From Actinomycetes bacterium (lineage in GTDB: Bacteria; Actinomycetota; Coriobacteriia; Coriobacteriales; JAEZXW01), in the NCBI GenBank assembly GCA_023419515.1, contig JAEZXW010000028.1, positions 6,411 to 70,410 on the forward strand: a stretch of DNA of 64,000 nucleotides, in the 5' to 3' direction. The translations under genes and the position numbers were made by a program. This document shows, piece after piece, positions 17,597 to 57,153 of this stretch; the first letter of the stretch is position 1; each line of letters starts with the position of its first letter. The notes under the pieces were generated by a model, which had not been told where the DNA came from, did not search any database, and saw only the letters and a program-made list of their open reading frames with translations.

Positions 17597-17662
17597 GATT
17601 TCCCCTAACCAATCAGCATATGATCTGATTGAGCGTGTGATGAATCGTTTGTACCGCAGCGT

Positions 17663-19461: not shown

Positions 19462-19488
19462 AACCGTCCTTGGTTGCTTGCTTGGATT

Positions 19489-22522: not shown

Positions 22523-22759
22523 TACAACTCCTTATCGCTTGTTAATAGGGTCTTTAAGGATAGCGCGTATTAAATTTTCATGTGGTCAAAGATGATAAAG
22601 TTACATAATCCAAGCAGCCCTTTACGGTATCGCACGTGAGAAACGCGGCAGCTGAATGATGGCATACGTGGTGCAGGGCACTTGTGGACAAGGGGTGTTT
22701 GTGTGCGGAGCCTTTGCGCGGGTATGGTGCGTGGATGTAAGACGAGAAAGACGGATGAC

Positions 22760-24848: not shown

Positions 24849-24961
24849 AGGAGGCTATCCTGCAATCGTGCGTGCATCAAAACAAGCGCTATCCTATCTG
24901 TTTCAGAGGACGTTGTGTTCTTGCAGCACCATTTTAATAGAAGTTTCTCAAGGGGGACTTT

Positions 24962-26062
24962 GTGCGCATCAGTGTCATCGTGCCATATTTTAATGTTGAG
25001 CGATACGTACGCTGTTGCCTTGAGTCGCTTTGCGCGCAGCAAGGTTTGTCAGGCGTTGAGCTCGAGGTGATCCTCGTCAATGATGGCTCGACCGATGGCT
25101 CTCGCGATATCGTGCATCGGTTTGTTGATGAAGTGAGCGCCGATGAGATGAGCAGGGCGCCTATCTCGGCGTCGTCTGTCTCCACGCCATCTGTTCCAAC
25201 GCTTTCGTTTCTCCATCATGACCAGGCAAATGCAGGGCTTTCGGTCGCCCGCAACAACGGGCTTGCCAGGGCAACGGGCGACTACTTTTTCTTTCTCGAT
25301 AGTGATGATGTCTTGCATCCGCAGTGTTTTGCACGGTTTTTACAGGTCGCAGCCGAGCATCCAGATGCGCTTCTTGTTTGCCAGCTCCAAGACTTTGATG
25401 CCGCTTTTGATCAGCCAACATTTGAGCGTCTTGTCGATAAGGTAAGTTCGATCTATCGTACCCAAGATGAAGCAATTGCCGAGCTCTATGAGCGTGAAAC
25501 CCTCGTGCCGATGACGGTGGCGTGTAGTAAGTTCTATCCCGCGCGTTATCGAGATTGCATTCACTTTGCCCCGGGCAAGCTGCATGAGGATGTTGGTCTT
25601 GCCCTCGATCTGCTGCTTGCCTCACCAGCAGGAATTTATCGCATCGATGAGCCGCTCTACTACTATCGGAGCAATTCTTCATCGATCATGAATACGCCCT
25701 CGGCACGCCATCTCGATGCCGTTGATTTTTATGATCAGCATCTCAAGAGCCTGCTTGCGCATTATGGAGAGAAGGACGAACATCAGGCGAAAGTTCTTGC
25801 GTGTGCCGCGGGGTTTGCAGCGCTCAAGACCTTCATGAACTACGGGGGTCACTTGCTCAAGGTGTATCACGGGCTCGCTCAGCAAGACAAGAATCAGGTT
25901 GATCATGCGCTTGCTGTGACCAAAAACATTGCGGTCTACCTGGATAAAACTCGGCCGGTTGCTTATTCTCGCAAAGATGACCTGTTGCTGACCGCTTTTT
26001 TACGAGCGCCCCAGGTCTCATCGCGGTTGTATGCTGGCCTCCTCGATCTCCTCAAGAAATAG
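24962..26062 (+). CDS. Family 2 glycosyltransferase
   Basis: GTG start with AAGGGGGA upstream. ISVIVPYFNVERYVRCCLESL..VILVNDGSTDGS..FFFLDSDD. Confidence 0.8.
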   Translation: MRISVIVPYFNVERYVRCCLESLCAQQGLSGVELEVILVNDGSTDGSRDIVHRFVDEVSADEMSRAPISASSVSTPSVPTLSFLHHDQANAGLSVARNNGLARATGDYFFFLDSDDVLHPQCFARFLQVAAEHPDALLVCQLQDFDAAFDQPTFERLVDKVSSIYRTQDEAIAELYERETLVPMTVACSKFYPARYRDCIHFAPGKLHEDVGLALDLLLASPAGIYRIDEPLYYYRSNSSSIMNTPSARHLDAVDFYDQHLKSLLAHYGEKDEHQAKVLACAAGFAALKTFMNYGGHLLKVYHGLAQQDKNQVDHALAVTKNIAVYLDKTRPVAYSRKDDLLLTAFLRAPQVSSRLYAGLLDLLKK

Positions 26063-26076
26063 CGTGACGTAGTGGC

Positions 26077-27636: not shown

Positions 27637-28706
27637 TGAGGTCAATATTGCCGCCGTTTATGACTGTGGTGATTGCGTACTTTAATGCGAGTAAGCACCT
27701 CGATTCGATCGAAGCAGTGCTCACGGCACAGCGCGAGTCATTGTGCAAGGCAGTCGCCCAATGTACTTCTCATTCTGGCGATGCTGAGTTTACCTCCGAT
27801 ATCGAAGTTATCATCGTTGATGACTGTTCGTCTGATGCCGAGAAGGTCGCACTTTTATCGCGCGCTGAGAGCCACGACTGGCAGGTCGTCGAGCTTGCAC
27901 AAAACGGTGGGCCTGGTGTTGCTCGCAATAAAGGTATAAGCAAGGCGACTGGTAAGTACCTGCTTTTTATGGATGCCGATGATGCACTGGCTCCCCATGC
28001 CTGCGGCGCTCTGTATCGTGAGTATCTTCAAGCGCAGGCAGCCTTGGCTGGTGAGCCGGCCGATGTGATCTGCTTTGACTACACCATGATCTCACCCCAT
28101 GTGACCTTGCCATATTCAACTATTCCTCAGGCACAAGCTGGCGTGGTTGATGCTCGCCAGGCGCTGGCGACAGTTCGTGGCTCGACTTTTGGTAAATGCT
28201 ATCTCAGGAGTCTGATCACCAGGCATAACCTGCAGTTTGGCACCTTGCGTCGTCACGAGGATACGGCGTTTACCAAGTCGGCAGTCTGTTGGGCAGAGCG
28301 GATCTGGTACACCAAGGAGTCGCTCTATGAATATCGGATGACGCCTGGATCGCTCACGCATGACACGCAGCTTGAGTCGTTTGAAACCTCATTCGATGCG
28401 CTGAGGATCATCAAGGCGTCGACCCAGGGCAGGCATCAGCTTGAGGTGCAATACGTTTATATCGTTGAGGTCATCATGTCGTGCGCGATGAAGTTTTACC
28501 TGCTCGATATTAGTGCGGATGAGGCTCGTGAGTTTTATGATCGGATTGATCGCGAGGAGCCAGGCTGGTGGTACAACCCTTACTTAGGTCAGGCATCTGC
28601 TCGCTATCGTTTGATCGCATGGCTGGTGCGTAAGCGTCAAACGAGGCTGATTAAGGCGATGATGTGGTGCGATAAACTCGCCCGAGCGGCGCTGCGCATC
28701 ACGTAG
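27636..28706 (+). CDS. Family 2 glycosyltransferase
   Basis: TVVIAYFNASKHL..VIIVDDCSSD..GPGVARNKGISKATGKYLLFMDADD. The ATG overlaps the stop of the preceding gene (TGATG). Confidence 0.75.
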   Translation: MRSILPPFMTVVIAYFNASKHLDSIEAVLTAQRESLCKAVAQCTSHSGDAEFTSDIEVIIVDDCSSDAEKVALLSRAESHDWQVVELAQNGGPGVARNKGISKATGKYLLFMDADDALAPHACGALYREYLQAQAALAGEPADVICFDYTMISPHVTLPYSTIPQAQAGVVDARQALATVRGSTFGKCYLRSLITRHNLQFGTLRRHEDTAFTKSAVCWAERIWYTKESLYEYRMTPGSLTHDTQLESFETSFDALRIIKASTQGRHQLEVQYVYIVEVIMSCAMKFYLLDISADEAREFYDRIDREEPGWWYNPYLGQASARYRLIAWLVRKRQTRLIKAMMWCDKLARAALRIT

Positions 28707-28786
28707 TTGCGACGCATGACCACGCCCATTGGCAGGCATAAGCAGACCAATCAAGTGACAAAGTTCATCAAGGCTATTGGATAACC

Positions 28787-29704
28787 ATGAGAAGACTGAT
28801 TACACAAAACCCTGAGTGTCGCGTTACCGATCGCAAGCTCACCCGCATGCGCGAACTGCAGCTTTTGATCACCGATCACGTTATTGCATTTTGCAAGGCG
28901 CACGATATTGAGGTGGTGCTTGATTGGGGGTCGCTGCTCGGCGCGGTGAGGCATCAGGGCTACATTCCGTGGGATGACGATATCGACCTCAGCATGACGC
29001 GCGAGAATTACAATAAGTTCATCGAGCTTTATTCGCAGGCAGATACCAGTCCTTTTGAGATTCGCTGCCCGGAGGTGTATGCAGGCTGCCCGCAGATTTT
29101 TATCAAGGTGGGGCTTAAAGACACCCTGTTTGTGCTCTTGGATTCAACGTCACCCGAAACATGTGCACAGGTGGCTATCGATATTTTTGTGCTGGATGAG
29201 GCGCCTCGCGATCAAAAGGTTTGCAAGAAAGACCTCGTTAGCATCGCGCTCAATCGTCAGCTATTCATCTCGTCGCAGATGTGGCGAGCAGGCAATTTAC
29301 AGAGTAGAGCCAAGGCGGCGATCTTTACTCTCGTTCGCATCGTGCTGCATATCGGCACAAGCTTTGTTCCGCGCATGAAGTTTTATGAAGCGATACTTAA
29401 GCGAGTCGAGCACCTGCGAGAGCTTGCACAGGAGCGCCCCGTATCTGAACGCACCTTTATTGGGGTGGAAGATCCGATCATCAACTTTAGGCTTGATCCG
29501 GCGTGGCTCGGTGATAGAGAGACATTTTCGACGGTTGAGTTTGAGGGTCGTCAGTATCCCGCCCCACGTGATGTGCATCAGTGGTTGACTGCTCAGTACG
29601 GCGATTACATGACGCCACCTCCACCTGAGAAGCGCTATGGTCACAAGCCCGAGGGCGTGGTGTTGGGCCCGTGGGAAGATGAGGATCCCAAGAGTTGTTG
29701 GTAG
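28787..29704 (+). CDS. licD: LicD-family phosphotransferase
   Basis: LTRMRELQLLITDHVIAFCKAHDIEVVLDWGSLLGAVRHQGYIPWDDDIDLSM is the canonical LicD core. Confidence 0.85.
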   Translation: MRRLITQNPECRVTDRKLTRMRELQLLITDHVIAFCKAHDIEVVLDWGSLLGAVRHQGYIPWDDDIDLSMTRENYNKFIELYSQADTSPFEIRCPEVYAGCPQIFIKVGLKDTLFVLLDSTSPETCAQVAIDIFVLDEAPRDQKVCKKDLVSIALNRQLFISSQMWRAGNLQSRAKAAIFTLVRIVLHIGTSFVPRMKFYEAILKRVEHLRELAQERPVSERTFIGVEDPIINFRLDPAWLGDRETFSTVEFEGRQYPAPRDVHQWLTAQYGDYMTPPPPEKRYGHKPEGVVLGPWEDEDPKSCW

Positions 29705-29857
29705 GGTGGTTTGTAGTTGTGGAGTGGCTGCCGCGAAGCGATCATACGGCGTGACTCACGGTCGCGTGTCAGGATGCGCCGATGTCGTGCTGGCAAACCC
29801 CTAGCTTTGCCGTCGTCAGGTAATTATTCACCGTGCTTCACAGTCACGCGTCCGAAC

Positions 29858-30775
29858 TTATCGCGAGCCGATAGCGTCTTTGCCCGTCTGAGCCTTAGAA
29901 ATGGCTCGCAGATGTGGAAACTCTTGATAGTATGGGACATCTGGATTGAATTTAGTGAGTACGTGATGCGGAACTTGCTGCTCTTGAGGTGGCAGTTTGA
30001 GGTAGTCACCAAACGCCATGGAAAGATAGTGGTGATAGCCTTCCATCACGTCGATTAGCATACCCTCAAACGGCAGTTGAATCGTCCTCTTAAACCACTC
30101 GGCATTAAACTCGTTTTGCATGTAGTGAGGGCCTGAGCAGAGCTCAGTGATGTAGTCACTTTCATCAAACGGATATTGCGTCATTTTACGCTCAAACCAG
30201 CGCGCCAGTTTTAACCGCACTTTGTTTGATGGTACGCAGGCGAGCAGCGCGCGCGAGCCAAATTCTACGACTTTGCCGTGATTCACAGGAATGAGCTGCG
30301 AATAAAAGAGCGAAAAGAGTAAAGCCCAGAGTTTTTGGAGCTTGCGAGCAAACGTCCCTGGTTTCGCTGAGCCATCGAGGGCGAGGATGTCGAGGGTGAT
30401 GCACTGCGGCATAACTCGGTGCTGCTGGTAGGGAAGGACAAGCGTCGTCTCTTCATCTCCGAGCTTGAGCATGAGGTCTCCGGTGAGCATATCGTCGTGG
30501 GTGAGGATGAGATTATAGCGGGGATGGCCGTCCTCTCTCCAGATTTGTTGGAGGCGTTCGTAATCAGGGCGCGGCATAAAAACATCGATATCGTCATCCC
30601 ACGGGATAAAGCCCTGATGACGCACGGCTCCAATGCATGAGCCTCCACACGCCCAAAATCGCAGGTTGTGTTTATGACAGTAGTCAGCAAATACGCGATA
30701 GATCTCGAGTGAACACTGCTGCAGCGCCTTGAGTTCGCGGGGAGAAAGCTGGTGGGTAAGAGCGGATGTATTCAT
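29858..30775 (-). CDS. licD: LicD-family phosphotransferase
   Basis: LSPRELKALQQCSLEIYRVFADYCHKHNLRFWACGGSCIGAVRHQGFIPWDDDIDVFMP. I preferred the start at ATG 30775 (AAGG upstream); the ORF is open to 30814. Confidence 0.85.
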   Translation of the reverse strand: MNTSALTHQLSPRELKALQQCSLEIYRVFADYCHKHNLRFWACGGSCIGAVRHQGFIPWDDDIDVFMPRPDYERLQQIWREDGHPRYNLILTHDDMLTGDLMLKLGDEETTLVLPYQQHRVMPQCITLDILALDGSAKPGTFARKLQKLWALLFSLFYSQLIPVNHGKVVEFGSRALLACVPSNKVRLKLARWFERKMTQYPFDESDYITELCSGPHYMQNEFNAEWFKRTIQLPFEGMLIDVMEGYHHYLSMAFGDYLKLPPQEQQVPHHVLTKFNPDVPYYQEFPHLRAISKAQTGKDAIGSR

Positions 30776-31107
30776 CGGTTGCCTTATCGTGGTCTGAGGC
30801 GCAAAGACGCTCATTGATGTGTTGGTCGTTCATGAAAAATTTCTTCTTATGATAAATCATGTCGAGATTGAGCAGCATGTGTGAGCAGCATACATGCATA
30901 TAAAATGCTTGGTTTTTGAGGTGGTTGCCTGAGAGGTGCGGGGTGGAGTGCTAAGCTTTCGAGAACACAAGGAGTTTGGGTTTGTATGCATTTGAGTTTG
31001 CAGGTGCTTTAGTCCGTTGATGCTTTGTGTGGTGGTGATCGTGTTTTTCGCGCGCCGTATTGATATGGCGTGTTGGAGGTAATGAGGCTGTGGCCAATTG
31101 TTGCGCA

Positions 31108-32778
31108 ATGTCAGAGCGCTTGAATTTCACCCATCGGTTTCTTGCAAAAGTCTTGGCAGTGATGCCCGGGGTGTTTGTCGGTATCCTTGGTGTCTACGAG
31201 GTCATGGTCGTGCGCAGTATAGTGCAGCCCGTGTTGTTTGGCGCGATTGGCTTTGCGGCGGTGTTGACGGTAGTGCTCATCATGTTGAACAAGCGGCGGT
31301 GTGGCGTGTGGCTTTTGGATGAGGGATGTAAGGAGCCAAGCCGGGCTCATAATCATCATGGTGTGCAAGGTGATTCTGGCGCGCTGATCCGCCCTCGGTT
31401 TCAGGATCGCTTTCTCAAGCCAACTGTGCTTGGTTGGATGCTCGTTGCTTTTTGTGCAACGCAGTTTTTGTCGATCTGCATCAACTGGGCATTTGGTTTC
31501 TGGCAAAACACCATCGATATGTTGGCACTTTTTGTTCTCACTGGTGTCGGACTAGTGAGCGCATTTCACAGCGATACCAGGCGACTGATGATCTGGTCGC
31601 TCGTGGTTTTTGTTGAGCTCATTGCGCTTTTTTGGACGCTCGTTTCGGTGTGGTGTCTCGTTACGGGATCATCGGTTTTGGTCTTTGACATAGCGGGCGA
31701 TGTTGGTCTGCGTATGGGATATTTTCAGCACCGATTTTGGGGTGTTGTCAATCCCAATATTCAGGCGGCGGTTGCATTTACTGCGATTGCGTTTTTGCCT
31801 GTGATTGCAAGGCTAGTTCGTGAGAGGCGACCTCAGGCAAATCGAGCGCCGATCGCGGTGCTCTTGGGGTGCTTAGGGTTGTTGCAGCTTGCGACCATTG
31901 TTGTGCTGCAGTCACGAGGGCTTTTGCTTAGTTTGACGGTGACGTTGTTTATTGCCGCCTGGTGTTTGACACCGCGTCATGCGTGGCAGCGAACAGGTAC
32001 GGCAGTTGTTGCGACCGCTCTTGGCGTTGGTTTGATCAGTGCCGGGTCGTGGTGCTTTGCGACGTTTCATCCGCTGACAGATCGCCCGTTTGAGGTGTTT
32101 GTTCAAAAGTCACTCGTGAGTTACGAGCGAATCGTTGCCGAGACAAACGAGGCAAACTGGGCGCTTTCGATTGCAGACATCTCGTCTCAGCAAGAGATAG
32201 CCAGCGAACTAGCAACCGATTCAGCCGCCGAGTCTACAGCCGGCTCAGCCGCCGAATCGCAGCAATCCAAGGCCACCCAAGCGCAGGTAGAAAGTGACGG
32301 CAAGGTTGATGCTCGCCTCTATCATACGACCAGCTCAGGTAGGATTGCGCTCTGGAAAAACGGACTTGCCATGATTGCTAAGCAGCCTTGGTTTGGCTAC
32401 GGCATGCGCGGCGCATTTGACCATTTTGACCAGTTCTTTACGCCATATTGGATCGCCAACTCTGTCATCGGTGGCAACCTGCACAACATGGCGCTGACCG
32501 TTGCGCTTAACTCGGGCGTGGTGGGGCTGATGAGCGCTGTGGTCTTGCTCGTCATGATCTTGGTGTACTGCGGGCGCGGTTTGCGTCTCGTGGCAAAAGA
32601 GGGCGTGGGGAGACATATCATGGTGGCAGTATTTGCCCTTGTGGTGATCGCACTGGTGATGCTTCAGGCGGTTGAGAGCATGATTTTCTATCGCTTTATG
32701 ATTGTGGCGCCAATCTTTTGGACGAGCGTGTTTGCACTGGTAGGATCCTTGGTAGCTCCTCGCAGCGATCAGTCCTAG
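31108..32778 (+). CDS. Second O-antigen polymerase/ligase-family (Wzy_C-type) membrane protein
   Basis: Polytopic. LQSRGLLLSLTVTLFIAAW, GRIALWKNGLAMIAKQPWFGYGMRG..NLHNMALTVALNSGVVGL. The start is uncertain (GTG 31090 or ATG 31108; ORF open from 31060). Confidence 0.65.
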   Translation: MSERLNFTHRFLAKVLAVMPGVFVGILGVYEVMVVRSIVQPVLFGAIGFAAVLTVVLIMLNKRRCGVWLLDEGCKEPSRAHNHHGVQGDSGALIRPRFQDRFLKPTVLGWMLVAFCATQFLSICINWAFGFWQNTIDMLALFVLTGVGLVSAFHSDTRRLMIWSLVVFVELIALFWTLVSVWCLVTGSSVLVFDIAGDVGLRMGYFQHRFWGVVNPNIQAAVAFTAIAFLPVIARLVRERRPQANRAPIAVLLGCLGLLQLATIVVLQSRGLLLSLTVTLFIAAWCLTPRHAWQRTGTAVVATALGVGLISAGSWCFATFHPLTDRPFEVFVQKSLVSYERIVAETNEANWALSIADISSQQEIASELATDSAAESTAGSAAESQQSKATQAQVESDGKVDARLYHTTSSGRIALWKNGLAMIAKQPWFGYGMRGAFDHFDQFFTPYWIANSVIGGNLHNMALTVALNSGVVGLMSAVVLLVMILVYCGRGLRLVAKEGVGRHIMVAVFALVVIALVMLQAVESMIFYRFMIVAPIFWTSVFALVGSLVAPRSDQS

Positions 32779-32855
32779 TGCAAGCTTTCTATCGCGCAAC
32801 AACTCCTGTTAAGCCCTCGAATGCAAAGGCGAGCCAGCTAGCTTATTTCATCGCC

Positions 32856-33989
32856 CTAATCGAGCGTTACTGCAATGCCTTGAGGAACTGCTAACACAAC
32901 CGCATCGCTCATGATCTTGGCGTGCAACTTGCTGATGTTAAGTAGGGTGCCATCACTATTAGCAGGAATTTTTGAGCCACTGCTCGTTTCAATGGAGACT
33001 TCAGTGACCCCTGATGCCGTGCTGACCTTTGGGTCAGCCAGGTGGGTGCCGAGCTTATATTGCTGCGCGAGCTTAATAAATGCGCGACGTGAGAGCGGGG
33101 TGCACCACATAAGATCAAGACCACCATCCGAGATGCTTGCACTCGGGAATGGAGCATATCCGTCACCATAAAAGCCGCTGTTACAAATCGTAAACAAAAG
33201 CATGTTGAGGTCGCGATAGTCAGTTTGCTCACCGGTTTTATCGGTAAAACGTACGTTGATCGTCGTGGGTGCCAGCATCGAAATTCCCCAGAGGGTTGCA
33301 GCGTTATAGCAGGCAGAGACCCCGAGCGGTGTCTTTTGCATGAGGGTGTAGGCGCGTTTTAAGACTTGCGAGTCAAAGCCAAAACCCATGATGTTGAGTG
33401 AGATTGCCTGCGAGAGCTGCTCGTCATCACAGGTGAATTTAATGAGATCAAGCTGATGAAAACGTACATCGAGTGTGCCTTGGATGATGCGTTCGATGAC
33501 GCGAGACTTGAGGACTGCATCAGGTGTGTGTGCTGCTTTTTGGTAGAGCTGACGGGCAAAATCATTGGCAGAACCTACAGGTACAACGCCAAGAGCAGGG
33601 CAGAAATCAGCTGGTCTTTCATCCGCACGATGTAAGGCAAGAGCGGTTGCGACCTCGCCAAGAGTCCCGTCTCCGCCGAGCACCCAGACGATCGGCGTCT
33701 GACCTTTAGCTCTATGGCTGTTCGTGTTTCTGCTATCGGCAAGCTTTGCTGTCGCTCGGCTCTCATCTCCTTTGTGTGCAAGTGCCGCTAAGCTCTCATC
33801 AATAATCGCTGCGGCAAACGCCTTGGCATCCTGAGCATTTTGAGTGAGATGGATTGCGATTTCATCGCTACGTCCTGCGTCGTGCCAAACGCGCTTGATC
33901 GTCTGCACGTAGGCGAGAGGCTGACCGCTGCCAGCTTTTGAACTGACGATAAAGTGAATAGAAGGGCTGGTGAGAGCAGGTTTTTTCAT
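32856..33989 (-). CDS. DAGK_cat-family lipid kinase (YegS/BmrU-like)
   Basis: VWVLGGDGTLGEVATAL (GGDGT motif) and VPVGSANDFAR. Confidence 0.8.
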   Translation of the reverse strand: MKKPALTSPSIHFIVSSKAGSGQPLAYVQTIKRVWHDAGRSDEIAIHLTQNAQDAKAFAAAIIDESLAALAHKGDESRATAKLADSRNTNSHRAKGQTPIVWVLGGDGTLGEVATALALHRADERPADFCPALGVVPVGSANDFARQLYQKAAHTPDAVLKSRVIERIIQGTLDVRFHQLDLIKFTCDDEQLSQAISLNIMGFGFDSQVLKRAYTLMQKTPLGVSACYNAATLWGISMLAPTTINVRFTDKTGEQTDYRDLNMLLFTICNSGFYGDGYAPFPSASISDGGLDLMWCTPLSRRAFIKLAQQYKLGTHLADPKVSTASGVTEVSIETSSGSKIPANSDGTLLNISKLHAKIMSDAVVLAVPQGIAVTLD

Positions 33990-48346: not shown

Positions 48347-51061
48347 TCAGGCAGTTGATGCCTGCGGCTCATCGACAGTTCCCCTCACCTGAAGCGCAAA
48401 TGCTACAGCCGCCTGTCCATAAGCGATACAACCATCGTTTTGAGGAAGCTCGCGTGAAAAATATGTCTTTTGTTCTAACTCTACGCCTTCGGGGTTCAGT
48501 CCAAGCGTTACAAGTTTTATCAGAATACGATTCATGAATGTTCCACCCGAAAAACATGCAGGTAGATCACCGTATTTGATTTGCAGTTGTTGTGTCAATT
48601 TGATGATGAGACCGCCGATCACGAGGTGTACATCAAGGGCGATGGCCTCGTATTTATCGTCCGCGTCCATGCGATCTAAGACCCATGCAATAAGCGCTCT
48701 GGTATCGATGATGCCTGATGAGTTTGGCATGAGGGCATCAACCATGGCGCGGATCTGGTCTTGTGCCATAAGTTCGCTGGCGTATTCGGCAAGGATCGCC
48801 ATGCTTGAGTTCGCTTTGGTTGAGGTGTGATTGTCTTGCCGTGACAGGTGAGATGAGCGCGTGTACTCCCAAGCGAGGAGTCCTCGGTGGGCTGCTGCTT
48901 CGAGCAAGATTGCCGCTTCACCCTCGTAGGTGGGGTTGCGGCAGATCCCAAGGAGGGCTGAGATTGCGTCAAAGAGTCGACCACAGCTGGTCGAGAAGGT
49001 CACGCCAAGACCCGCTCTACCAACGAGCTCGCGTATCATCTGCAGCTCTTTGGGATCGATTGATTGTTGGAGAGACTGTGCTGCTGGATGATCGACCAGT
49101 CCAAAATGAGCGAGCACGCCAATAGCAAGGCGGTCGGTGTGTTTGATGGCTCGTTCGCCGCCGACAAGCGGAATTGCCTTAAAGTGCGCCACGCGCTTGG
49201 CGCTGGCGAGCGTTGCCACAAAGAATTCGCCACCCCACAGATCACCTGAGTGGTCATCGATGGTGAGATCCTCATAATCGGGGATGAGATGATATGACGT
49301 GCTGGTTTGTTCTTGACCGAGGGCGACCCAGGGTGCTCCCGTGCCATCAAAGGCAACACCAATGCAGGCGTTGATGTCGTGCTCAGCCATGACGGCAGCC
49401 ACGTGAGCATGGTGGTGGCAGACGTCGACGCGTGTGCAGTGCTCTTCCTGCTGAGATTCAGCATAACTATTGTTCTGTGCGTTATGGCTGCTTAGTTCGA
49501 GATAATGGTTCCCCCACATTGTCGAGTGATAGGAGGGGTGCATGTCGAGGGCAAGTGTGGTGGGATCAAGTCGTAAAAGCTCACGATAGGTTGCAAGGGT
49601 TGACTCAAACGATTCTAAAATTGCCGCGTTGTGAAGATCGCCGATGTGTTGCGAGACAAAGACTTGTGGGCCTTGGGCAAGAGCAAAGGTATTCTTTTGC
49701 TCAGAGCCCGTTGCGAGGATGACACGGTTCATAACCTCGCATTCCTGTGGAGTTGCAGCTATTGGATCTGCTGGTTGCTCAAAGAGCTGCGTCGCCTTGA
49801 TAGGTACGGGGAATGGTGCATACCCACGAGCTCTACGAATCATATAGAGTTTGTCATCCAAGATGCGAACGACTGAATCATCGAGTCGCTGTACGATTTG
49901 GCGGTCGTGAAGCACAAAGCCGTCGGCGATGGCGTTGAGCGCTGAAAGCGCGTAGTTGTCATCGATACAGATTGGCTCACCAGAAATATTACCGCTCGTC
50001 ATGATGAGCGGACGGCCAACCAGCCTCGTGAGCAGGTGGTGCAGTGGCGTGCTCGGCAGCATGACGCCGACTTCAAGCAGATCGAGGGTCACTGAAGGTG
50101 CAAGTGGTGCATCTTGGCGTTTTTCCAGCAGCACGATAGGTGCAGCGCTTGAGGCGAGGGCAGTTTTTTCTGCTTCAGAGAGATGCCCAAGTTCACTCGC
50201 TGCATCGATGTCAGCCACCATGCATGCGAGCGCTTTGCGGGGGCGATGCTTGCGGTGGCGCAGGGTTGCGACTGCTGCTTCATTGGTGGCATCGCAGGCA
50301 AGGTGAAATCCGCCGAGACCCTTGATAGCGAGAATTTTGCCGTCAAGCAGGGAGTGGGCTGCCGTCTCAAGAATGAGGTCGGAGTTTAGCCGTCGCTCTT
50401 CAACGGTGGTGCCACTGACACTCAAGCGCTCATCGCCAGCCTGCCAGCTTATCTGCGGTCCACAGATAAAGCAGGCGTCGGGCTGGGCATCAAAGCGTCT
50501 ATTCGCTGGATCGTGATACTCCGTACTGCACTCATGGCACATTTGAAACTCATGCATTGACGTGCGGCAACGATCATAGGGAAGTTCTTTAATGACGGTC
50601 GCGCGCGGTCCGCAGTTGGTGCAGTTGATAAAGGGATAGTGATAGCGCCGATTGTCTGGATCTAACAGTTCCGCTAGGCAGTCAGGACAGGTTGCGAGGT
50701 CTGCTGAGACGTGCGTGGTTTGCCGATAAGGGAGGTCATATTCATCATCACGCGATTCGATGATCTCAAAGGGTCGAGGATTGCCTGCTTCATCGATGTC
50801 ATTCTCAGCAAGCTCACTCGGTTTGACCGTAAACTCGGTGACCCGCGCCTGTGGAGGCAGATCGTTTTTAAGCGTGTGAGTAAAGGCTTTAATCGCCTGC
50901 TCGTCTTTGACAATTGCGTGGATGGTAACACCGCGAACGCCGTTTAAGACCCATCCGGCAATTTGGTGCTGAGTAGCAATGCGCCAGATGGTTGGACGCA
51001 TGCCAACTCCCTGGACAACGCCCTTGAGTGACACGTCATATGCTAGCCAGTGTTGCTTCAT
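48347..51061 (-). CDS. hypF: Carbamoyltransferase HypF (904 aa, longer than usual)
   Basis: Acylphosphatase domain (VKGVVQGVGMRP), two Zn fingers (CPDCLAELLDPDNRRYHYPFINCTNCGPR; CHECSTEYHDPANRRFDAQPDACFICGP), and YrdC-like and Kae1-like regions. Confidence 0.9.
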   Translation of the reverse strand: MKQHWLAYDVSLKGVVQGVGMRPTIWRIATQHQIAGWVLNGVRGVTIHAIVKDEQAIKAFTHTLKNDLPPQARVTEFTVKPSELAENDIDEAGNPRPFEIIESRDDEYDLPYRQTTHVSADLATCPDCLAELLDPDNRRYHYPFINCTNCGPRATVIKELPYDRCRTSMHEFQMCHECSTEYHDPANRRFDAQPDACFICGPQISWQAGDERLSVSGTTVEERRLNSDLILETAAHSLLDGKILAIKGLGGFHLACDATNEAAVATLRHRKHRPRKALACMVADIDAASELGHLSEAEKTALASSAAPIVLLEKRQDAPLAPSVTLDLLEVGVMLPSTPLHHLLTRLVGRPLIMTSGNISGEPICIDDNYALSALNAIADGFVLHDRQIVQRLDDSVVRILDDKLYMIRRARGYAPFPVPIKATQLFEQPADPIAATPQECEVMNRVILATGSEQKNTFALAQGPQVFVSQHIGDLHNAAILESFESTLATYRELLRLDPTTLALDMHPSYHSTMWGNHYLELSSHNAQNNSYAESQQEEHCTRVDVCHHHAHVAAVMAEHDINACIGVAFDGTGAPWVALGQEQTSTSYHLIPDYEDLTIDDHSGDLWGGEFFVATLASAKRVAHFKAIPLVGGERAIKHTDRLAIGVLAHFGLVDHPAAQSLQQSIDPKELQMIRELVGRAGLGVTFSTSCGRLFDAISALLGICRNPTYEGEAAILLEAAAHRGLLAWEYTRSSHLSRQDNHTSTKANSSMAILAEYASELMAQDQIRAMVDALMPNSSGIIDTRALIAWVLDRMDADDKYEAIALDVHLVIGGLIIKLTQQLQIKYGDLPACFSGGTFMNRILIKLVTLGLNPEGVELEQKTYFSRELPQNDGCIAYGQAAVAFALQVRGTVDEPQASTA

Positions 51062-51636
51062 TGTAGTGTTGTGTGATCGTGATGGTGCCCATGGTGATCA
51101 CTGTGAGTAGCGTGATTGCCGCCGCAGCCACAGGCGTCGTGATGCTGAGCGTGGTGGTTGCCACGGTCGCGTCTATCCTGATAGTCGTGGTCGCAGCCGT
51201 GCTTACGACTATCAGCTGATTGAATAACCGTAGCGGTCAAGTGACCGGTTTTGACGCCTTTGAGCCCCATGAGCTTGTTGGCAAGCGCGCGTACCTCGGT
51301 CGCCTCACCCTTAAGCGCAATCACCTCAAGGCAATAAGAAAGATCGAGGTGAATATGCATTTTTGAGATCACCATGGAGCCAGCGTGGTGCTCGATCTCG
51401 TCTTTTTCTTGTGAGAGCTTGCTGTGATGATGACCGTAGAGCAAGGTGAGCGTTCCTGCGACAAGTGCTCCTGGTTGAGCCCATGCCTGATCGTTGAGCT
51501 CATCGCGAATCAAGTCGCGGACAGCTTCTGATCGATTGGCGGTTGCTCCGCGCGTGTTGACATACGCATCAAAATCGCGCAGTAAATCCTGGGACAGCGT
51601 CACCGAAAAACGAATGAGTTGATCTCCACTACTCAT
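51058..51636 (-). CDS. nikR: NikR-family nickel-responsive regulator with a C-terminal His/Cys-rich extension
   Basis: RHH domain IRFSVTLSQDLLRDFDAYV..NRSEAVRDLIRDEL. Ni-site pattern EHH..MHIHLDLSYCLEVIALKG (H-x-H-x5-C). The tail ..KHGCDHDYQ..GNHHAQHHDACGCGGNHATHSDHHGHHHDH has 14 His and 3 Cys in the last 54 aa. The stop overlaps the hypF ATG (ATGA). Confidence 0.8.
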   Translation of the reverse strand: MSSGDQLIRFSVTLSQDLLRDFDAYVNTRGATANRSEAVRDLIRDELNDQAWAQPGALVAGTLTLLYGHHHSKLSQEKDEIEHHAGSMVISKMHIHLDLSYCLEVIALKGEATEVRALANKLMGLKGVKTGHLTATVIQSADSRKHGCDHDYQDRRDRGNHHAQHHDACGCGGNHATHSDHHGHHHDHTTLQ

Positions 51637-51667
51637 GGCGGGCGTTTGTGCTAAAAGCGAGTGTGCG

Positions 51668-51922
51668 CTACACGAGAGATACGGTGGTTCCGTCTTGATC
51701 TTGCGTGTCACGCTCGAGGGCATCGGTCATCTCGTCGAGGAGTGAGCGAGCCTCATCAAGCAGGTTTTGTGCTTCCAACAGTTTTTTTGCCGTGCGCTGC
51801 ATCTGTGCATCGTCAGCGAGGTGATAGGTTTTGTGAGTCCAGCGACGCACCAGTGCGACATGATCATTGAGCAGATCGATGTTTCCCTGAAGCTGTGAGG
51901 TATTCACGCCATTGGTGCACAT
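51668..51922 (-). CDS. Small hypothetical helical protein upstream of nikR
   Basis: GGAG lies 8 nt before ATG 51922. The 84-aa product (..AQMQRTAKKLLEAQNLLDEARSLLDEMTDALERD..) matches no recognised family. Confidence 0.4.
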   Translation of the reverse strand: MCTNGVNTSQLQGNIDLLNDHVALVRRWTHKTYHLADDAQMQRTAKKLLEAQNLLDEARSLLDEMTDALERDTQDQDGTTVSLV

Positions 51923-51985
51923 AAGGGTCACTCCAGTTCTCTTAAATCATTGCTCTCATTCGTTACTATCTAGCGGTTTTGAGGC

Positions 51986-52103: not shown

Positions 52104-52424
52104 TTAGCCGAGGTGCTCCTCAAGCTGGCGCAGGATAGCTGCCTTTGGAGATGCACCAACGAGGGTTGCAACAGGCTGGCCACCCTTGAAGAGAATCATA
52201 GTTGGGATTGACATAACACGATACTGCGCAGCCAGATCCTGGTTCTCATCAACATTGCACTTACCAACGTTCAGGCGATCTGACTCCTCGTTGCCGAGCT
52301 CCTCAATAACTGGACCAAGCTGACGGCAAGGGCCACACCACTCAGCCCAAAAATCAAGCAGGAAAGGCTTGTCAGACTTGAGAACAAGCTCTTCAAAATT
52401 AGCAGCAGTAATTTGCTCAGCCAT
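52104..52424 (-). CDS. trxA: Thioredoxin
   Basis: AAGGAG lies upstream of ATG 52424. The active site reads WAEWCGPCRQL. Confidence 0.9.
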   Translation of the reverse strand: MAEQITAANFEELVLKSDKPFLLDFWAEWCGPCRQLGPVIEELGNEESDRLNVGKCNVDENQDLAAQYRVMSIPTMILFKGGQPVATLVGASPKAAILRQLEEHLG

Positions 52425-52565: not shown

Positions 52566-53798
52566 CTAGAGCACAATTCCGTCGGCGGCTGGATTAGAGA
52601 TTTGATTTCTCTCGTTTTTAATGCGTTCAAGATAGGTTTGGCTTGATTGCTTGATGTGCTGAGCTGATTCATCATCACCCGCAAGGTCAATGGTGCGTTG
52701 AAAAAGCTGTTGCGCCAGATCGGCATCTCCTTGACCCTGCCACGCGACGATGGCTCGATAGTAGTTTGCCTGCAGATCATCAGGAGAGGTGGCAAGGGCG
52801 CTTTCAAGCTGCGTGACCGCCACATCGGTCGTGCCCGAGTAAAAGGAGAGAATACCGTAGTTGATTTTTGTGCGCTGGTTGTCCTCTCCCTGATTTAAGG
52901 AGCGTCGGTAGTAGTCACAGCCTTTTTGCGCAAAGCTCACTGCAAGCGCAGGATCCTTGGTCACGGTTTGCTCATAGAGGTTGAGGTAGCCATCACCCAT
53001 GGTGGCAAGTGCTGCTGCATCGGTGGGATTGGTCTGTAGCTTGACGAGAGCGTCGATGATGGTCGACTGATCCTCGGTCAAAAAGCTGCGATATTCGCTC
53101 GAGATCGTGATGGTGTTGGGCTTGCTCAGGATGCTTAAGTTATATGCGGTCACGACGAGGGTCGCGATAAAAATGGCACTCGCAAAGATCAGGATCATGA
53201 CGGCGGTGCGATGCTTTTGAAACGGTCTGATGATAAAGCGGCGCATAGGCGAGAGGTTGAGCTCATCGTCATGGCGCAGAGTTGCGATGCCAAGGCTTTG
53301 GGCTTTAAGCAGCATGTTGAGGTCATTGGTTACCAGCACAAGGCTTGGTTTTGAGCTAGCTGGCCCTGGCTGCTCGGGATCAAGCTGAGAGGCTTGCCCT
53401 GAGGCATGGACTTGCGTCGAGGCTTGCCCAGAGGTTTGTTCCTGCTTGGCATCGAGCTTTTGCTTGAGGCGTAAGGCAGCAACAAGGATTTTGTCATCAG
53501 GGTTTTTAATCGAGTAACCCTCAGGCATCGGGAGCTTGGTGTCAAAGGGCAAGACCGTGAGGGTGCCGCCTTGAGAAAGTGTTACACCATCGATCAAAGA
53601 TTGGCCATCACATAGGTCAAACAGGTTGCGTGTAAATTCGCGCCCTTTGTAGCGTGTATCAGAATCAGCGCGTCCAATCTTGACTTTATCAACCTCAGCA
53701 AGCACGGTGTCCGGAAGATAAACAGTCTTGTCAGCATAGCTTGCCAAAACGTTTGAATCGGTCAGGATGACGTTGGTGTCGAGTAGATAAACTGTCAC
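52566..53798 (-). CDS. Membrane-tethered PIN-domain protein: N-terminal PIN, one TM helix, C-terminal TPR-like domain
   Basis: PIN acidic residues are in place (VYLLDTNVIL; LAEVDK; LVLVTNDLNMLLKAQSLGI), interrupted by a low-complexity insert. The TM helix AVMILIFASAIFIATLVVTAY is preceded by RRFIIRPFQKHR. The C-terminus has TPR-like repeats (..GDGYLNLYEQ..AQKGCDYYRRSL..QANYYRAIVAWQGQGD..). Confidence 0.65.
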   Translation of the reverse strand: MTVYLLDTNVILTDSNVLASYADKTVYLPDTVLAEVDKVKIGRADSDTRYKGREFTRNLFDLCDGQSLIDGVTLSQGGTLTVLPFDTKLPMPEGYSIKNPDDKILVAALRLKQKLDAKQEQTSGQASTQVHASGQASQLDPEQPGPASSKPSLVLVTNDLNMLLKAQSLGIATLRHDDELNLSPMRRFIIRPFQKHRTAVMILIFASAIFIATLVVTAYNLSILSKPNTITISSEYRSFLTEDQSTIIDALVKLQTNPTDAAALATMGDGYLNLYEQTVTKDPALAVSFAQKGCDYYRRSLNQGEDNQRTKINYGILSFYSGTTDVAVTQLESALATSPDDLQANYYRAIVAWQGQGDADLAQQLFQRTIDLAGDDESAQHIKQSSQTYLERIKNERNQISNPAADGIVL

Positions 53799-53813
53799 GA
53801 GCTCACCGGAGCC

Positions 53814-56567
53814 TTACTTATCGGGAGTATCCGCTGGTGTATTTGCACCCACGCGGCTGGCATCTGGGCTGCCATCGGCTGCAGCGTCGCGGTCGCTGTC
53901 TGCGTTTGCATGCTCTGATGGCATTTCATTAAACGTACCACGCTCTTCAAGCTCACAGAGTTCTTTGTGCAATTTTTCCAGATCAAAATGGTGGTGTTCG
54001 TTGTGTCCTGAGGTTGCCTCGGAGGCATCACTGTGGGTGTGTTCGTTATCGCCGAGGGTCTCGATGATATCTTGAATGACTGGCGTATCTTCGGTCAGCG
54101 CCTCTTGATTGAGCGCTCGTGAAGCGCCTGCTGCCCTGAGTCGGCGACGCATCATGATAATGATGAGCAAAAAGAGGAGGATGCCACCTATAAAGATGAG
54201 CTTGAGGTCAACACGAGAGCTTTCGATAGGGATGACCTGTGTTTTTACGATTTCATTTTTGGCGCGAACCTCGATGGTGAGCGCATTTTTGTCGGGGTTG
54301 CCGCCCGCCGGACCGCTGTCGATCTTGATTGGGATCTGCAGGTAGTTGTCGCCTGCCTTGGTGCTTGCGGTCACACCTTCGATGTACTTTTGGTCGTTAA
54401 CCTTTACCTGCCCGGATCCATGCGCAGTGATGGTGAGGGTGAGCGCAATGTCGTTCACGTTTTTGATGACGGCGGGGATACTTGCTGTGTTGGAGTTGAG
54501 CTTGGAGCCTGGGCTTGTGATGGTGATCGAGTCAAAGATGTTCTGAACGAGATCGGTCACAGCGCGCGCTTGCTCCTCGGCTCCCTGGGGCTCATTAAGC
54601 GCCTGCCATTGAGCCGATGAAGCGCTCACAAAGTACTGCCAGGCAGTTTTGACTTGCGTCGAAAGTGGTGAGCTGGCATCTGCCAAGATAAGGAGCTTTT
54701 TATGAGCTTCTTTGATGGCTTGCGTCTCTGCATTGGATGGCTCATCACTTGAGCTGGTAGCTGCAGTATCTAAGCCATTTGTTGAGGTTGTTTGCGATGG
54801 TTGTTGCTTGGTATTTGATGTTGGGTCGATAAGATCAAGTTGAACCTCGGTTTTTTGATCAGCGATTTTATCGGCAAACTTGAGTTGTACGAGAGAAACT
54901 TTGCTCAAGAATTGGATGTTTTTGCGTAGGTTGCCAAAGGCTTCTTCATCACCCGTGAGCTGGGCGACTAAGACCATGGGGACATCGTGAACGGATTCGG
55001 TGGCTTGGGCGCTGGCGATCAAAAGGCTGTGCTCGGCAGCAAATGCTTCAATAAAGACGTCGTTTGATTGCGAGGTAAGCATTTTGCTGAGTGACTCAGA
55101 ATAAAGCACTGCATTTGTCTTCGCGTTGACCTGCAAGAACTTCTGTGGAGCATCTTGGGTTTGCGGGAGGATGATAAGCGGGACTTCCTTTGCCTCAAGC
55201 TCATAGCTTAGCGGGCGCGAGAGCTGATGAGCAGCAAGCAGTAGTCCCGGTTCAACCGAGAGTTCGGGTAGCGGACGGTCATCAAAGGCAGTTTCCTTAT
55301 CAGGGAGCAACATCGCCTTTGCTTCGTTGATGGCGCCAAGTGATTGCAGAAGATCGAGGTCAGGATAGCTTTCGCCCGAGCTTATCACTTTAAGTTTGCC
55401 GCTTTCGACCTTTTGCTGCATCTTGGCTAAGAGGTTGCGATAGAGTTCATCGGTCTGGCTAAGTGCCTGCCAGTCTCGTAGGGTGACCTGAGAAAACACG
55501 AGAGTAATGGGGTTATGGAGTTCGGGACCGGTTGTCTCGAGTAAGAGATCAAGCTGATGGGCAATGCGATCCGACCGCTTAAGGAGCGCGGACTGATCAT
55601 TGGCAGCAGCTTGGTTTGCGTCGTTGGGGGCGTCGCTGTTGTGCTGATCGTTAGCTGGCGCTTGATCAGTCGCTATCTGATCACTAGTCGCCCCTTGGCT
55701 GCCCGCGGCTGACTCGGCAGAAAGCTGCTTGGTTTGTGCATCTTGAGTTTGAGGGTCACCTTGCATCTGATCTTGCGTTTGACCCTCGTTTTGTCCCGCT
55801 TGAGTGGCGACGTTGTGGGTATCTCCTGCGACTGCCACCTGCTGATCGAGCGGATACATGAGAGGCGGGAGGCTGACGTTGATGAGGATGCCACCATCAA
55901 GCCTGAGCGTCGTGTCGTGCAGATAGGTCTTGTACACCAGGGTTTGCTCACGCTTGCCCTTGAGTGAGTTCAGGGTCACTCGGGTCTCAACGGTGTAAAT
56001 TCCCGGAGAGAGTTCTCGCGGGTTTCTGCTGTTGTACGCCGCATTTTGCGGAGCGAGTGAGGCGCGTATGGCGTGCTCGCCAGCTTCAGGATCATTCCAG
56101 CGATCTTGAGAGCGGGCAATCGTCGTGCCGTCGGTGTCGAGGAGTTTGACTTGCGAGGTGAGCCTCGTGGTATCTTCTGGAACTTCAACATTGATATCAA
56201 CGAGTAACGTATTGTTAATCTGCTGGGTGGCAGCAAGGGTTACCTCTGCCAATGAATCGCCTTCGCTTGAGATTTGAGGAGCAAGGGCGCCCTGGTATGC
56301 CTCGTGATTTGCATTGAGGTGCGACCACGCGATCTTGTATGAGGCGGGGGCTGCCAGACTTGAGTGCGGTGCAAGAGACGCCGCGCCCAGCACGGTCATC
56401 AATGCGAGGCAGATGGCGGTAAACATCAGTATGGCTTGCCGAGATGCCGACAAGAATCGTTGATATGTCTGAGTAATAATAGAGCCAGTCATTACGTGAT
56501 CTAGACGAGTAGCGTATAAATGAGTTGTCCTAGCGTAACAGGAGTGTTCCCGCTGGTGTATGCGCAT
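53814..56567 (-). CDS. Large type-I membrane ectoprotein (signal peptide, ~770-aa ectodomain, C-terminal TM, His/Asp-rich cytoplasmic tail)
   Basis: Signal-like region ILMFTAICLALMTVLGAASLAPHSSLAAPA. A Q/D/N-rich linker is present. The C-terminal TM helix LIFIGGILLFLLIIIMM is followed by RRRLR. The start is ambiguous (56567 or 56492). No family was recognised with confidence. Confidence 0.6.
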   Translation of the reverse strand: MRIHQREHSCYARTTHLYATRLDHVMTGSIITQTYQRFLSASRQAILMFTAICLALMTVLGAASLAPHSSLAAPASYKIAWSHLNANHEAYQGALAPQISSEGDSLAEVTLAATQQINNTLLVDINVEVPEDTTRLTSQVKLLDTDGTTIARSQDRWNDPEAGEHAIRASLAPQNAAYNSRNPRELSPGIYTVETRVTLNSLKGKREQTLVYKTYLHDTTLRLDGGILINVSLPPLMYPLDQQVAVAGDTHNVATQAGQNEGQTQDQMQGDPQTQDAQTKQLSAESAAGSQGATSDQIATDQAPANDQHNSDAPNDANQAAANDQSALLKRSDRIAHQLDLLLETTGPELHNPITLVFSQVTLRDWQALSQTDELYRNLLAKMQQKVESGKLKVISSGESYPDLDLLQSLGAINEAKAMLLPDKETAFDDRPLPELSVEPGLLLAAHQLSRPLSYELEAKEVPLIILPQTQDAPQKFLQVNAKTNAVLYSESLSKMLTSQSNDVFIEAFAAEHSLLIASAQATESVHDVPMVLVAQLTGDEEAFGNLRKNIQFLSKVSLVQLKFADKIADQKTEVQLDLIDPTSNTKQQPSQTTSTNGLDTAATSSSDEPSNAETQAIKEAHKKLLILADASSPLSTQVKTAWQYFVSASSAQWQALNEPQGAEEQARAVTDLVQNIFDSITITSPGSKLNSNTASIPAVIKNVNDIALTLTITAHGSGQVKVNDQKYIEGVTASTKAGDNYLQIPIKIDSGPAGGNPDKNALTIEVRAKNEIVKTQVIPIESSRVDLKLIFIGGILLFLLIIIMMRRRLRAAGASRALNQEALTEDTPVIQDIIETLGDNEHTHSDASEATSGHNEHHHFDLEKLHKELCELEERGTFNEMPSEHANADSDRDAAADGSPDASRVGANTPADTPDK

Positions 56568-56628: not shown

Positions 56629-57153
56629 ATGTTGAACGAGTTTGACGAACAATTTGCTCTCTACGAAAAACTTGCTATTTCTCGAGCTCAGCGCTTGCAT
56701 GAACTCAGCTCTGATCTGCGCGTGACAGGCTCTGCTGTGGGAAAGATTTTAGTGTGTGCATCGCATGAAACTATCCATGATGAGTCAATTGTTTATGCAC
56801 TCGAGCGGGCATTTTCCTCGCTGGGACACGAGTCAGATCAGCTGACCTATCTCTTGTATCAGTCGATCGATGATCCTGTGACGCTTGCTATTGAGTATAT
56901 TGATCCAGCGCTTGTGGTGGTTTTTGATGGCTTGCTGTTTTTTCACCTGACGACTGCCGAATCAGCAAACGAGACGCTCAGTGAGACCTCAAGTAAAGCT
57001 CTAACGAAGGAGCTAGCGATCGGGAGCTGTGGTTGGTTTCGAGCTCGTCGGGTGATCTATGTGGGTGACTTTATCGAAGCGGTCAAAGCTCAAAATGAGG
57101 TGCTCAAACGCGAAATTTGGCAGGCACTCAAGCAACACGCAGCTCATATTTAG
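56629..57153 (+). CDS. Hypothetical protein (174 aa)
   Basis: ORF preceded by AAGAGGATGGTGAG. No motif was recognised with confidence. Confidence 0.45.
   Translation: MLNEFDEQFALYEKLAISRAQRLHELSSDLRVTGSAVGKILVCASHETIHDESIVYALERAFSSLGHESDQLTYLLYQSIDDPVTLAIEYIDPALVVVFDGLLFFHLTTAESANETLSETSSKALTKELAIGSCGWFRARRVIYVGDFIEAVKAQNEVLKREIWQALKQHAAHI

Follow-up and report, generated by a model that had tools for sequence, protein, structure and literature searches.

A conserved pair of genes for membrane proteins

We analyzed a 64,000-nucleotide (nt) stretch of DNA from a genome of the class Coriobacteriia (assembly GCA_023419515.1, contig JAEZXW010000028.1, forward-strand positions 6,411 to 70,410; hereafter the window), in which two adjacent genes on the minus strand encode membrane proteins. 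Gene 1 encodes a 917-amino-acid (aa) protein with a large ectodomain, and gene 2 encodes a 410-aa protein in which an N-terminal PIN domain is joined through one transmembrane (TM) helix to a tetratricopeptide repeat (TPR) domain; we refer to the latter as the PIN-TM-TPR protein. Genes 1 and 2 are the first two genes of an operon conserved class-wide in Coriobacteriia. The TAA stop codon of gene 1 (53814-53816) and the GTG start codon of gene 2 (53798) are separated by 15 nt, and the spacer holds a Shine-Dalgarno-like GGTGAG site. A thioredoxin gene, trxA (Pfam Thioredoxin, E=5e-31), follows on the same strand; its start is probably the ATG at 52424, which is preceded by an AAAGGAG site and lies about 140 nt past the gene 2 stop. 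An earlier reading of the window made from its letters alone (the sequence-only reading) had described these two open reading frames (ORFs), their spacing and trxA as the next gene, and this arrangement was confirmed. The features of both proteins are collected in Table 1.

Neither ORF is a chance product, since both have homologues. A search of 5.8 billion proteins returned 240 relatives of the 410-aa protein; those listed are full length, at about 375 aa, and nearly all that are named come from Coriobacteriia metagenome bins, where they are labeled only "PIN domain-containing protein." For the 917-aa protein, only 25 relatives turned up when 1.84 billion representative proteins were searched exhaustively with phmmer; its family evolves fast.

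Table 1. Positions of the two genes, their predicted protein features and the genes that follow (coordinates are those of the window)
Feature	Position	Strand	Basis or remark
Gene 1, 917-aa ectoprotein	53814..56567	minus	ORF; divergent DUF6049 (Rv3909-family) relative; start possibly M26 at 56492
Gene 1: signal peptide/N-terminal anchor, residues ~26-72, core 44-66	56352..56492	minus	Hydropathy; modeled helix 30-64
Gene 1: N-terminal beta-sandwich, residues 107-231	55875..56249	minus	AlphaFold2 (AF2) strands; predicted local distance difference test (pLDDT) ~86-93
Gene 1: Q/D/N-rich disordered insert, residues 240-314	55626..55850	minus	pLDDT <50; follows first barrel strand
Gene 1: GH57-like body, residues 316-783	54219..55622	minus	Alpha/beta barrel, helical bundle, C-terminal beta-sandwich
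Gene 1: C-terminal TM helix, residues 786-812	54132..54212	minus	Invariant Asp787 before, RRRLR after
Gene 1: acidic His-rich tail, predicted cytoplasmic, 105 aa	53814..54131	minus	Composition, alignment, low pLDDT
Gene 2, 410-aa PIN-TM-TPR protein	52566..53798	minus	ORF, Pfam, homologues, AF2
Gene 2: PIN_4 domain, predicted cytoplasmic, residues 1-180	53259..53798	minus	Acidic D7, E35, D101/D102, D159
Gene 2: low-complexity PIN insert, residues 117-152	53343..53450	minus	Lineage specific; pLDDT 55-59
Gene 2: juxtamembrane motif RRFIIRPFQKHR and TM helix, residues 184-224	53127..53249	minus	Conservation, hydropathy
Gene 2: TPR domain, predicted extracytoplasmic, residues 234-401, eight helices	52596..53099	minus	AF2, profile, Foldseek
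trxA (thioredoxin)	52104..52424	minus	Pfam and NCBIfam thioredoxin
87-aa small ORF after trxA	51668..51931	minus	Kept across loci; without known family

The PIN domain and its predicted active site

Residues 4-174 of the 410-aa protein match PIN_4 (Pfam PF13638) with E=1.2e-17, and the score of 64.9 bits exceeds the 21.9-bit cut-off. An alignment of 120 homologues, the basis of all residue conservation and charge counts for this protein, shows four groups of invariant residues: D7/T8/N9, E35/D37/K38, D101/D102 and T157/D159/N161. The sequence-only reading had held that the catalytic residues are intact and had listed three acidic motifs, all of which proved real; the pair D101/D102 is a fourth that its list omitted.

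A family profile built from the PIN part alone aligns the invariant acidic motifs with the ELD, DD and T-D motifs of human SMG6, whose catalytic residues are D1251, E1282, D1353 and D1392 (PMC5499597; reference 28575517). The sequence match of this profile to SMG6 is marginal (E=0.023), and phmmer with the PIN domain alone found no match among PDB sequences. The AF2 model, computed from the 120-sequence alignment, has a mean pLDDT of 90.6 (94-98 in the PIN domain) and shows the alpha/beta core of a PIN fold. Foldseek matches this part to the PIN domain of SMG6/EST1A with TM-scores of 0.59-0.64 on target length and E values of about 2e-4 to 1.4e-3, and SMG6 (PDB 2hww, 2hwx and 2dok) is the closest solved fold. 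The low-complexity insert, present in the window protein and one relative only, sits in the same loop where SMG6 carries an insert.

Residues 2-114 of the NCBIfam PhoH2 model align to residues 2-114 of the protein (E=1.2e-8), but the protein falls outside PhoH2, since only these N-terminal 114 residues align and it scores 34 bits where the cut-off is 680. PhoH2 (for example, Mycobacterium tuberculosis Rv1095) belongs to the same PIN_4 subfamily; unlike it, the 410-aa protein has no PhoH ATPase domain and carries a TM helix and a predicted extracytoplasmic TPR domain instead.

Mean p-distances are 0.32 for the PIN domain, 0.30 for TrxB, 0.55 for the TPR domain and 0.67 for the ectoprotein. These values point to purifying selection on the PIN active site as strong as that on TrxB. 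Judging from its complete set of acidic residues, the PIN domain would be an active RNase.

Topology and the TPR domain

In the AF2 model, a juxtamembrane helix (residues 184-195) leads into a long TM helix (residues 197-224), and a single hydrophobic segment is found in 120 of the 120 homologues. Lys plus Arg in the 15 residues flanking this segment average 4.9 before it and 0.96 after it (5 and 1 in the window protein), with the bias in the same direction in every homologue. By the positive-inside rule, this charge distribution would place the PIN domain in the cytoplasm and the TPR domain outside. The N-in/C-out topology is thus supported, and with it the proposal of the sequence-only reading that the TPR domain faces outward. 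Conservation among the homologues reaches 90% or more in the motif R191-P-F-Q-R-Y-x-x-P199 and across the inner half of the TM helix, which suggests that the helix is more than a plain anchor.

Beyond the membrane, eight helices at residues 242-401, modeled with pLDDT values of 95-98, make up about four TPR repeats. The family profile matches consensus TPR proteins with E values from 1e-69 to 1e-16; Pfam TPR matches of the single sequence, over residues 297-381, are weak and lie under the cut-offs. Foldseek returns MamA, consensus TPR proteins (CTPR) and SycD for this part of the model. Pfam PIN_4, the TPR profile and the AF2 model thus agree on the succession of PIN domain, one TM helix and TPR domain that had been read from the sequence.

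The ectoprotein is a divergent relative of the DUF6049 family

The 917-aa protein has no match in Pfam, even at E<=10, or in NCBIfam, and by itself it stays under the DUF6049 (PF19516) cut-off. Word-indexed searches, whether the query was the single sequence or a 14-sequence alignment, returned only the protein itself. Its affiliation was reached through genes at related loci. The gene directly upstream of the PIN-TM-TPR gene at locus L005 matches the 917-aa protein by BLASTP with E=4e-33 and 28% identity over 492 aa, and this neighbor passes the DUF6049 cut-off of 30.1 bits with 31.4 bits; the corresponding neighbor at locus L002 scores 44.2 bits. Among 69 positional orthologues, 12 match DUF6049 at E<=0.01, and an in-house iterated hidden Markov model picks up one ectoprotein-like ORF per related locus. 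In alignments, the relatives share the layout of signal peptide, large ectodomain and C-terminal TM helix, which is also that of Rv3909 and its Mycobacterium smegmatis counterpart MSMEG_6928. On this homology, gene 1 encodes a divergent, fast-evolving, membrane-anchored surface relative of the DUF6049/Rv3909 family. The sequence-only reading had likened the protein to actinobacterial envelope proteins encoded near murJ and trx genes, a hunch that fits this assignment, since Rv3909 adjoins mviN/murJ in mycobacteria.

Hydropathy locates hydrophobic segments at residues 44-66 and 786-808. Together with the AF2 model, it bears out the previously described layout, including the C-terminal TM helix and the Q/D/N-rich stretch; the tail, which we measured at 105 residues, contains 8 His, 12 Asp and 13 Glu. 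The model has an overall pLDDT of 71, with domain cores mostly above 80, and resolves an alpha/beta barrel (about residues 330-570), a helical bundle (613-679) and a second beta-sandwich (681-783), followed by the disordered tail.

A (beta/alpha)7 barrel followed by a helical bundle is the arrangement of the GH57 fold, and GH57 enzymes are the top Foldseek matches. The best is the amylopullulanase of Staphylothermus marinus (7e1y_A; E=8.3e-17, 513 columns), and others, down to E=1e-5, include the Thermus thermophilus branching enzyme 3p0b, an Aquifex amylopullulanase and the 9jl* entries. A 69-sequence ectoprotein profile independently matches 7e1y (E=7.6e-5). With 7e1y and 3p0b the body of the ectodomain shares the barrel, the helical bundle and the C-terminal beta-sandwich; it differs from them in sequence, at 10-14% identity, and in belonging to a protein that is predicted to be extracytoplasmic and membrane anchored. 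The GH57 Pfam model PF03065 has no match in the window protein and matches 4 of the 69 relatives at E<=0.01 (best E=9.5e-6).

The family has motifs of its own, namely GRFxxDP (past the first strand), LEEW and YxDPDL, and it keeps an invariant Asp where the TM helix emerges on the outer side. Of the GH57 conserved regions, only a region-2-like motif (GRLEL/GKLKV) aligns. No conserved acidic residues were seen in the family at the positions expected for the GH57 nucleophile and acid/base, and no acidic residue of the barrel is invariant except the Asp of YxDPDL. We therefore describe the ectoprotein as GH57-like in fold; the GH57 catalytic residues are not recognizable in it. Gene 1 most likely encodes a glycan-binding or noncanonical wall-associated protein.

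Some features of the window proteins are peculiarities of the lineage rather than of the family. The Q/D/N insert is specific to this genome's copy of the ectoprotein and absent from 13 relatives in the alignment, and the long acidic, His-rich tail is restricted to the subclade of the window; the insert in the PIN domain is likewise lineage specific.

Conservation of the operon

With one genome per species (185,579 representatives), relatives of the PIN-TM-TPR protein were found in 185 species. The best 80 of these are all Coriobacteriia, from several orders, and include cultured Lancefieldella; the closest matches among the species representatives, at 47% identity, come from a Lancefieldella sp. 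and Coriobacteriia metagenome bins. The homologue loci were fetched, and the 80 that remained after removal of four duplicates were subjected to ORF calling and searches with in-house profiles.

In 79 of these 80 loci (68 of 69 where the contig leaves room), the gene immediately upstream of the PIN-TM-TPR gene, on the same strand, is DUF6049-like. The sequence-only reading had treated the two genes as a unit, and their co-conservation, checked across genomes, stands on this count. Downstream, trxB is the adjacent gene in 67 of the 74 loci with room for it, and in 67 of 71 loci its start lies within 5 nt of the PIN-TM-TPR stop, usually with a stop/start overlap. Where a downstream trxA was found (74 of the 80 loci), it is no more than 2 kb away in 72. 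The order in relatives is DUF6049, PIN-TM-TPR, trxB, trxA and an 83-aa ORF, then often nikR and the hyp genes. This class-wide operon with trxB and the GH57-like fold of the ectoprotein both go beyond what had been read from the sequence.

The gap between the DUF6049-like and PIN genes is at most 60 nt in 44 loci and 301-600 nt in 27. A small gene of about 120 aa occupies the longer gap in about 25 of these 27 loci, or about a third of the Coriobacteriia loci (examples are L001:9606-9968, L016:7622-7975 and L038:7581-7958); the window has no such gene. Its product carries a TM helix at the N terminus and the conserved stretch "V.VWTE..V.GTW"; no Pfam family was matched beyond a weak TadE-like hint (E=0.09). 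Homologues of the 87-aa ORF occur in 76 loci, nearly always just after trxA, and have no Pfam family; this ORF seems to be a regular member of the operon.

Flanking genes and the wider window

The database entry for gene 1 (P0121, 892 aa) begins at M26 (ATG at 56492), and M26 rather than the first codon of the 917-aa ORF may be the true start; no clear ribosome-binding site was seen before either. A 174-aa ORF with no family assigned (56629-57153, plus strand) diverges from gene 1, and the intergenic region between the two measures 136 nt with the M26 start and 61 nt with that of the 917-aa ORF. Homologues of this ORF are recognizable in the closest clade only (4-5 loci); in other Coriobacteriia the matching position is taken by an unannotated ORF of about 190 aa.

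The nikR ORF of the window (51058-51723, minus strand) encodes 221 aa, against 139-164 aa in relatives. Its N-terminal extension probably reflects an over-called start; a C-terminal extension of about 45 aa is very rich in His and Cys (HHAQHHDACGCGGNHATHSDHHGHHHDH). The nikR stop overlaps the start of hypF (48347-51061). As the ectoprotein and NikR tails are both His rich, the lineage may add metal-binding tails to several proteins.

Farther off, a polysaccharide/envelope cluster at about 17000-33000 contains two Wzy_C (O-antigen ligase-like) proteins (26077-27636 and 31060-32778) and a Polysacc_synt flippase (23529-24848), and a polysaccharide deacetylase is encoded at 1387-2784. No murJ was found among ten of the larger ORFs of the window, the check being limited to those ten. 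The G+C content is about 52% throughout; no tRNA genes or Rfam families occur across the 64 kb, and a scan of the window for promoters and terminators gave no more hits than expected by chance.

Relation to known systems

No published description of the PIN-TM-TPR architecture was found in the searchable literature, in agreement with the sequence-only reading, which had not recognized it as characterized. A survey of the PIN superfamily mentions no TPR fusion, and the sole membrane-bound group it describes is PIN-TRAM (YacL) (PMC5499597). YacL-type proteins (PIN.COG4956) resemble the PIN-TM-TPR protein in being membrane-anchored bacterial PIN proteins (PMC5499597); they differ in having four N-terminal TM helices, a PIN domain of the PF01850 type and a TRAM domain, and in lacking an extracytoplasmic domain.

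Comparisons outside this group concern either domains or logic. SMG6 offers the closest PIN fold, with aligned catalytic motifs, but is a soluble eukaryotic factor of nonsense-mediated mRNA decay with the reversed domain order and no membrane span. A PIN domain accompanied by a helical-repeat (14-3-3/TPR-like) domain is also found in the SMG proteins. In Ire1, a lumenal sensor is joined through a TM segment to a cytosolic kinase/RNase, so that an RNase is controlled by a domain across the membrane. The likeness of Ire1 and of membrane-anchored RNase Y to the PIN-TM-TPR protein is one of logic only, an RNase at the membrane; the domains are unrelated.

The DUF6049 genes of Actinomycetes provide a comparison at the level of the locus. 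They too lie beside envelope genes, with trxB/trxA nearby and an RNA decay enzyme in the operon; the gene downstream of mycobacterial DUF6049 is murJ/mviN, not a PIN-TM-TPR gene. Rv3909 of M. tuberculosis is uncharacterized and predicted to be essential, and it adjoins mviN/murJ, with which it is probably cotranscribed; it is also a two-hybrid partner of MmpL3 (PMC6656915). MSMEG_6928, the DUF6049 protein of M. smegmatis, is septal and arrives after FtsW, and silencing of its operon leads to short, thick cells (PMC8861988). The gene upstream in that operon, mutT4, was shown in 2026 to encode the RNA pyrophosphohydrolase RppH, whose deletion raises envelope permeability and oxidative stress resistance (PMC12988327). 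The authors of that study see a connection of RNA decay to the envelope that is still unexplained; examples are RppH and DapF in E. coli and, in mycobacteria, RppH together with Rv3909 and MurJ (PMC12988327).

The combination found here, a PIN_4 domain predicted to lie inside, a conserved TM helix and a TPR domain predicted to lie outside, locked to DUF6049 and trxBA across a class, appears to be undescribed. Its component parts are known domain types, and the ectoprotein is a marginal member of an established family whose function is unknown. The mycobacterial order we take to be Rv3908 mutT4, Rv3909, Rv3910 mviN, Rv3911 sigM, Rv3912 anti-sigM, Rv3913 trxB2 and Rv3914 trxC. If this order is right, the PIN-TM-TPR gene fills the slot held in Actinomycetes by murJ and sigM/anti-sigM, and an RNA decay enzyme shares an operon with DUF6049 in both classes.

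Possible functions of the PIN-TM-TPR protein

Our preferred reading, to which we give a probability of roughly 45%, is that the PIN-TM-TPR protein is a membrane-tethered endoribonuclease coupled to the envelope via its outer TPR domain, probably with the DUF6049-like protein as its partner. The PIN RNase would be held at the inner face of the membrane and would cut RNA close to where the envelope is made or secretion takes place. The outer TPR domain would bind a protein ligand, for which the co-encoded DUF6049 ectodomain is the first candidate, and this binding may set the location, oligomeric state or activity of the RNase. Envelope or redox state could in this way feed into mRNA decay, by a logic that recalls Ire1 with unrelated parts. 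RNase activity, the TPR ligand and any regulation are what we infer in this scheme. The sequence-only reading, which had proposed a transmembrane device of this kind, is accordingly supported in part: its anatomy, topology, active site, co-conservation and hunch about the locus stand, and the control of the RNase from outside belongs to the inferred portion. In a more specific form, which we regard as unlikely, the protein would be a transmembrane sensor-RNase: the TPR domain would read the state of the wall or of exported proteins via the GH57-like DUF6049 protein and switch the PIN domain to cleave membrane-proximal mRNAs.

Several observations weigh against a functional coupling of this kind. 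At locus L006 (GCA_015655215.1) the PIN-TM-TPR gene is intact and no DUF6049 gene adjoins it. This genome belongs to the only lineage found (L006, L007 and L012) that lacks a DUF6049-like gene at the locus, in which about 530 nt upstream of the PIN-TM-TPR gene are apparently noncoding; in this lineage (GCA_015655215.1 and a Logan contig), a 381-aa PIN-TM-TPR protein and trxA are kept. The clade of the window itself has lost trxB from the locus. In the window ectoprotein, several family motifs are lost or disrupted: the 75-aa insert interrupts the GRF..DP loop, and the position of D490, acidic and mostly Asp in 81% of relatives, is Ser. Rather than reflecting a functional link, the order of the genes could have been inherited as synteny close to a conserved region of the chromosome. 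Mirror-tree partial correlations, controlled for TrxB, are 0.56 for TPR and ectoprotein, 0.49 for PIN and ectoprotein and 0.33 for PIN and TPR, a weak signal that is confounded by the shared fast evolution of exposed proteins and is suggestive at most.

The alternative that survives best, possible though doubtful in our view, is a constitutive housekeeping RNase localized to the membrane in the role of RNase Y or membrane-bound RNase E, with the TM helix and TPR domain serving as anchor or scaffold and no signal crossing the membrane. A PIN domain as conserved as TrxB, a gene present class-wide in one fixed housekeeping neighborhood and the lack of any defense or phage signature are all as such an enzyme would have them. 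Yet a folded, well-conserved outer TPR domain of about 160 aa would be a costly anchor, and the strong conservation of the juxtamembrane and inner-TM motif suggests specific contacts.

We consider it rather unlikely that the locus reflects synteny only, with DUF6049 and the PIN-TM-TPR protein independent of each other and the latter tied to the thioredoxin genes or to nothing nearby. That the PIN-TM-TPR gene persists at L006 and that its stop overlaps the trxB start in most loci speak for such independence, but a DUF6049-like gene stands directly upstream on the same strand in all but one locus, at close spacing in 44, and the window clade dropped trxB while it kept the pair of DUF6049 and PIN-TM-TPR genes. 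In a variant of this idea, the PIN-TM-TPR protein could replace, at the posttranscriptional level, the sigM/anti-sigM pair found ahead of trxB-trxC in Actinomycetes; with the Rv3909-Rv3914 order as we assume it, the protein sits in the same slot and shares the N-in/TM/C-out layout of an anti-sigma factor.

It is improbable that the protein is a chaperone or assembly factor that uses its outer TPR domain to handle exported proteins in the manner of CcmI or SycD, with the PIN domain as a noncatalytic binding module. Inactive PIN domains are known, as in SMG5 (PMC5499597), the TPR domain resembles chaperone-type TPR proteins (SycD, PcrH and Sgt2), and sources often label the protein CcmH/NrfG-like; the four acidic positions and the neighboring Thr and Asn residues are nevertheless invariant in 120 sequences, which would be unexpected for a degenerate PIN domain. 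Finally, bacterial PIN_4.COG1875 members are broadly labeled as toxins of toxin-antitoxin systems (PMC5499597), but we reject a VapC-like toxin or an antiphage defense component, since no small antitoxin gene is adjacent (the neighbors being DUF6049, trxB and trxA), the 370- to 410-aa multidomain protein with TM helix and TPR domain is no small stand-alone PIN protein, its housekeeping position is fixed and vertically inherited in the 80 loci, and there is no PADLOC match.

Implications

Repeated observations tie mRNA decay to the envelope but offer no mechanism, and the PIN-TM-TPR protein is a testable physical candidate for the link. If it were a sensor-RNase, it would provide a direct physical link from envelope biogenesis or redox stress to mRNA decay in Actinomycetota, with a logic comparable to that of Ire1 and regulated Ire1-dependent decay (RIDD) and a parallel in the mycobacterial RppH-DUF6049-MurJ operon. 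Regulation of the RNase from outside the cell would amount to a new type of bacterial signal transduction. Even without such regulation, the GH57-like fold and the candidate partner give a handle on the function of DUF6049. Coriobacteriia are a class of gut and sediment bacteria, with a cultured carrier of the gene pair in Lancefieldella sp. (OZ221969.1), and the findings would bear on the organization of RNA decay throughout this class, including common bacteria of the human gut and mouth.

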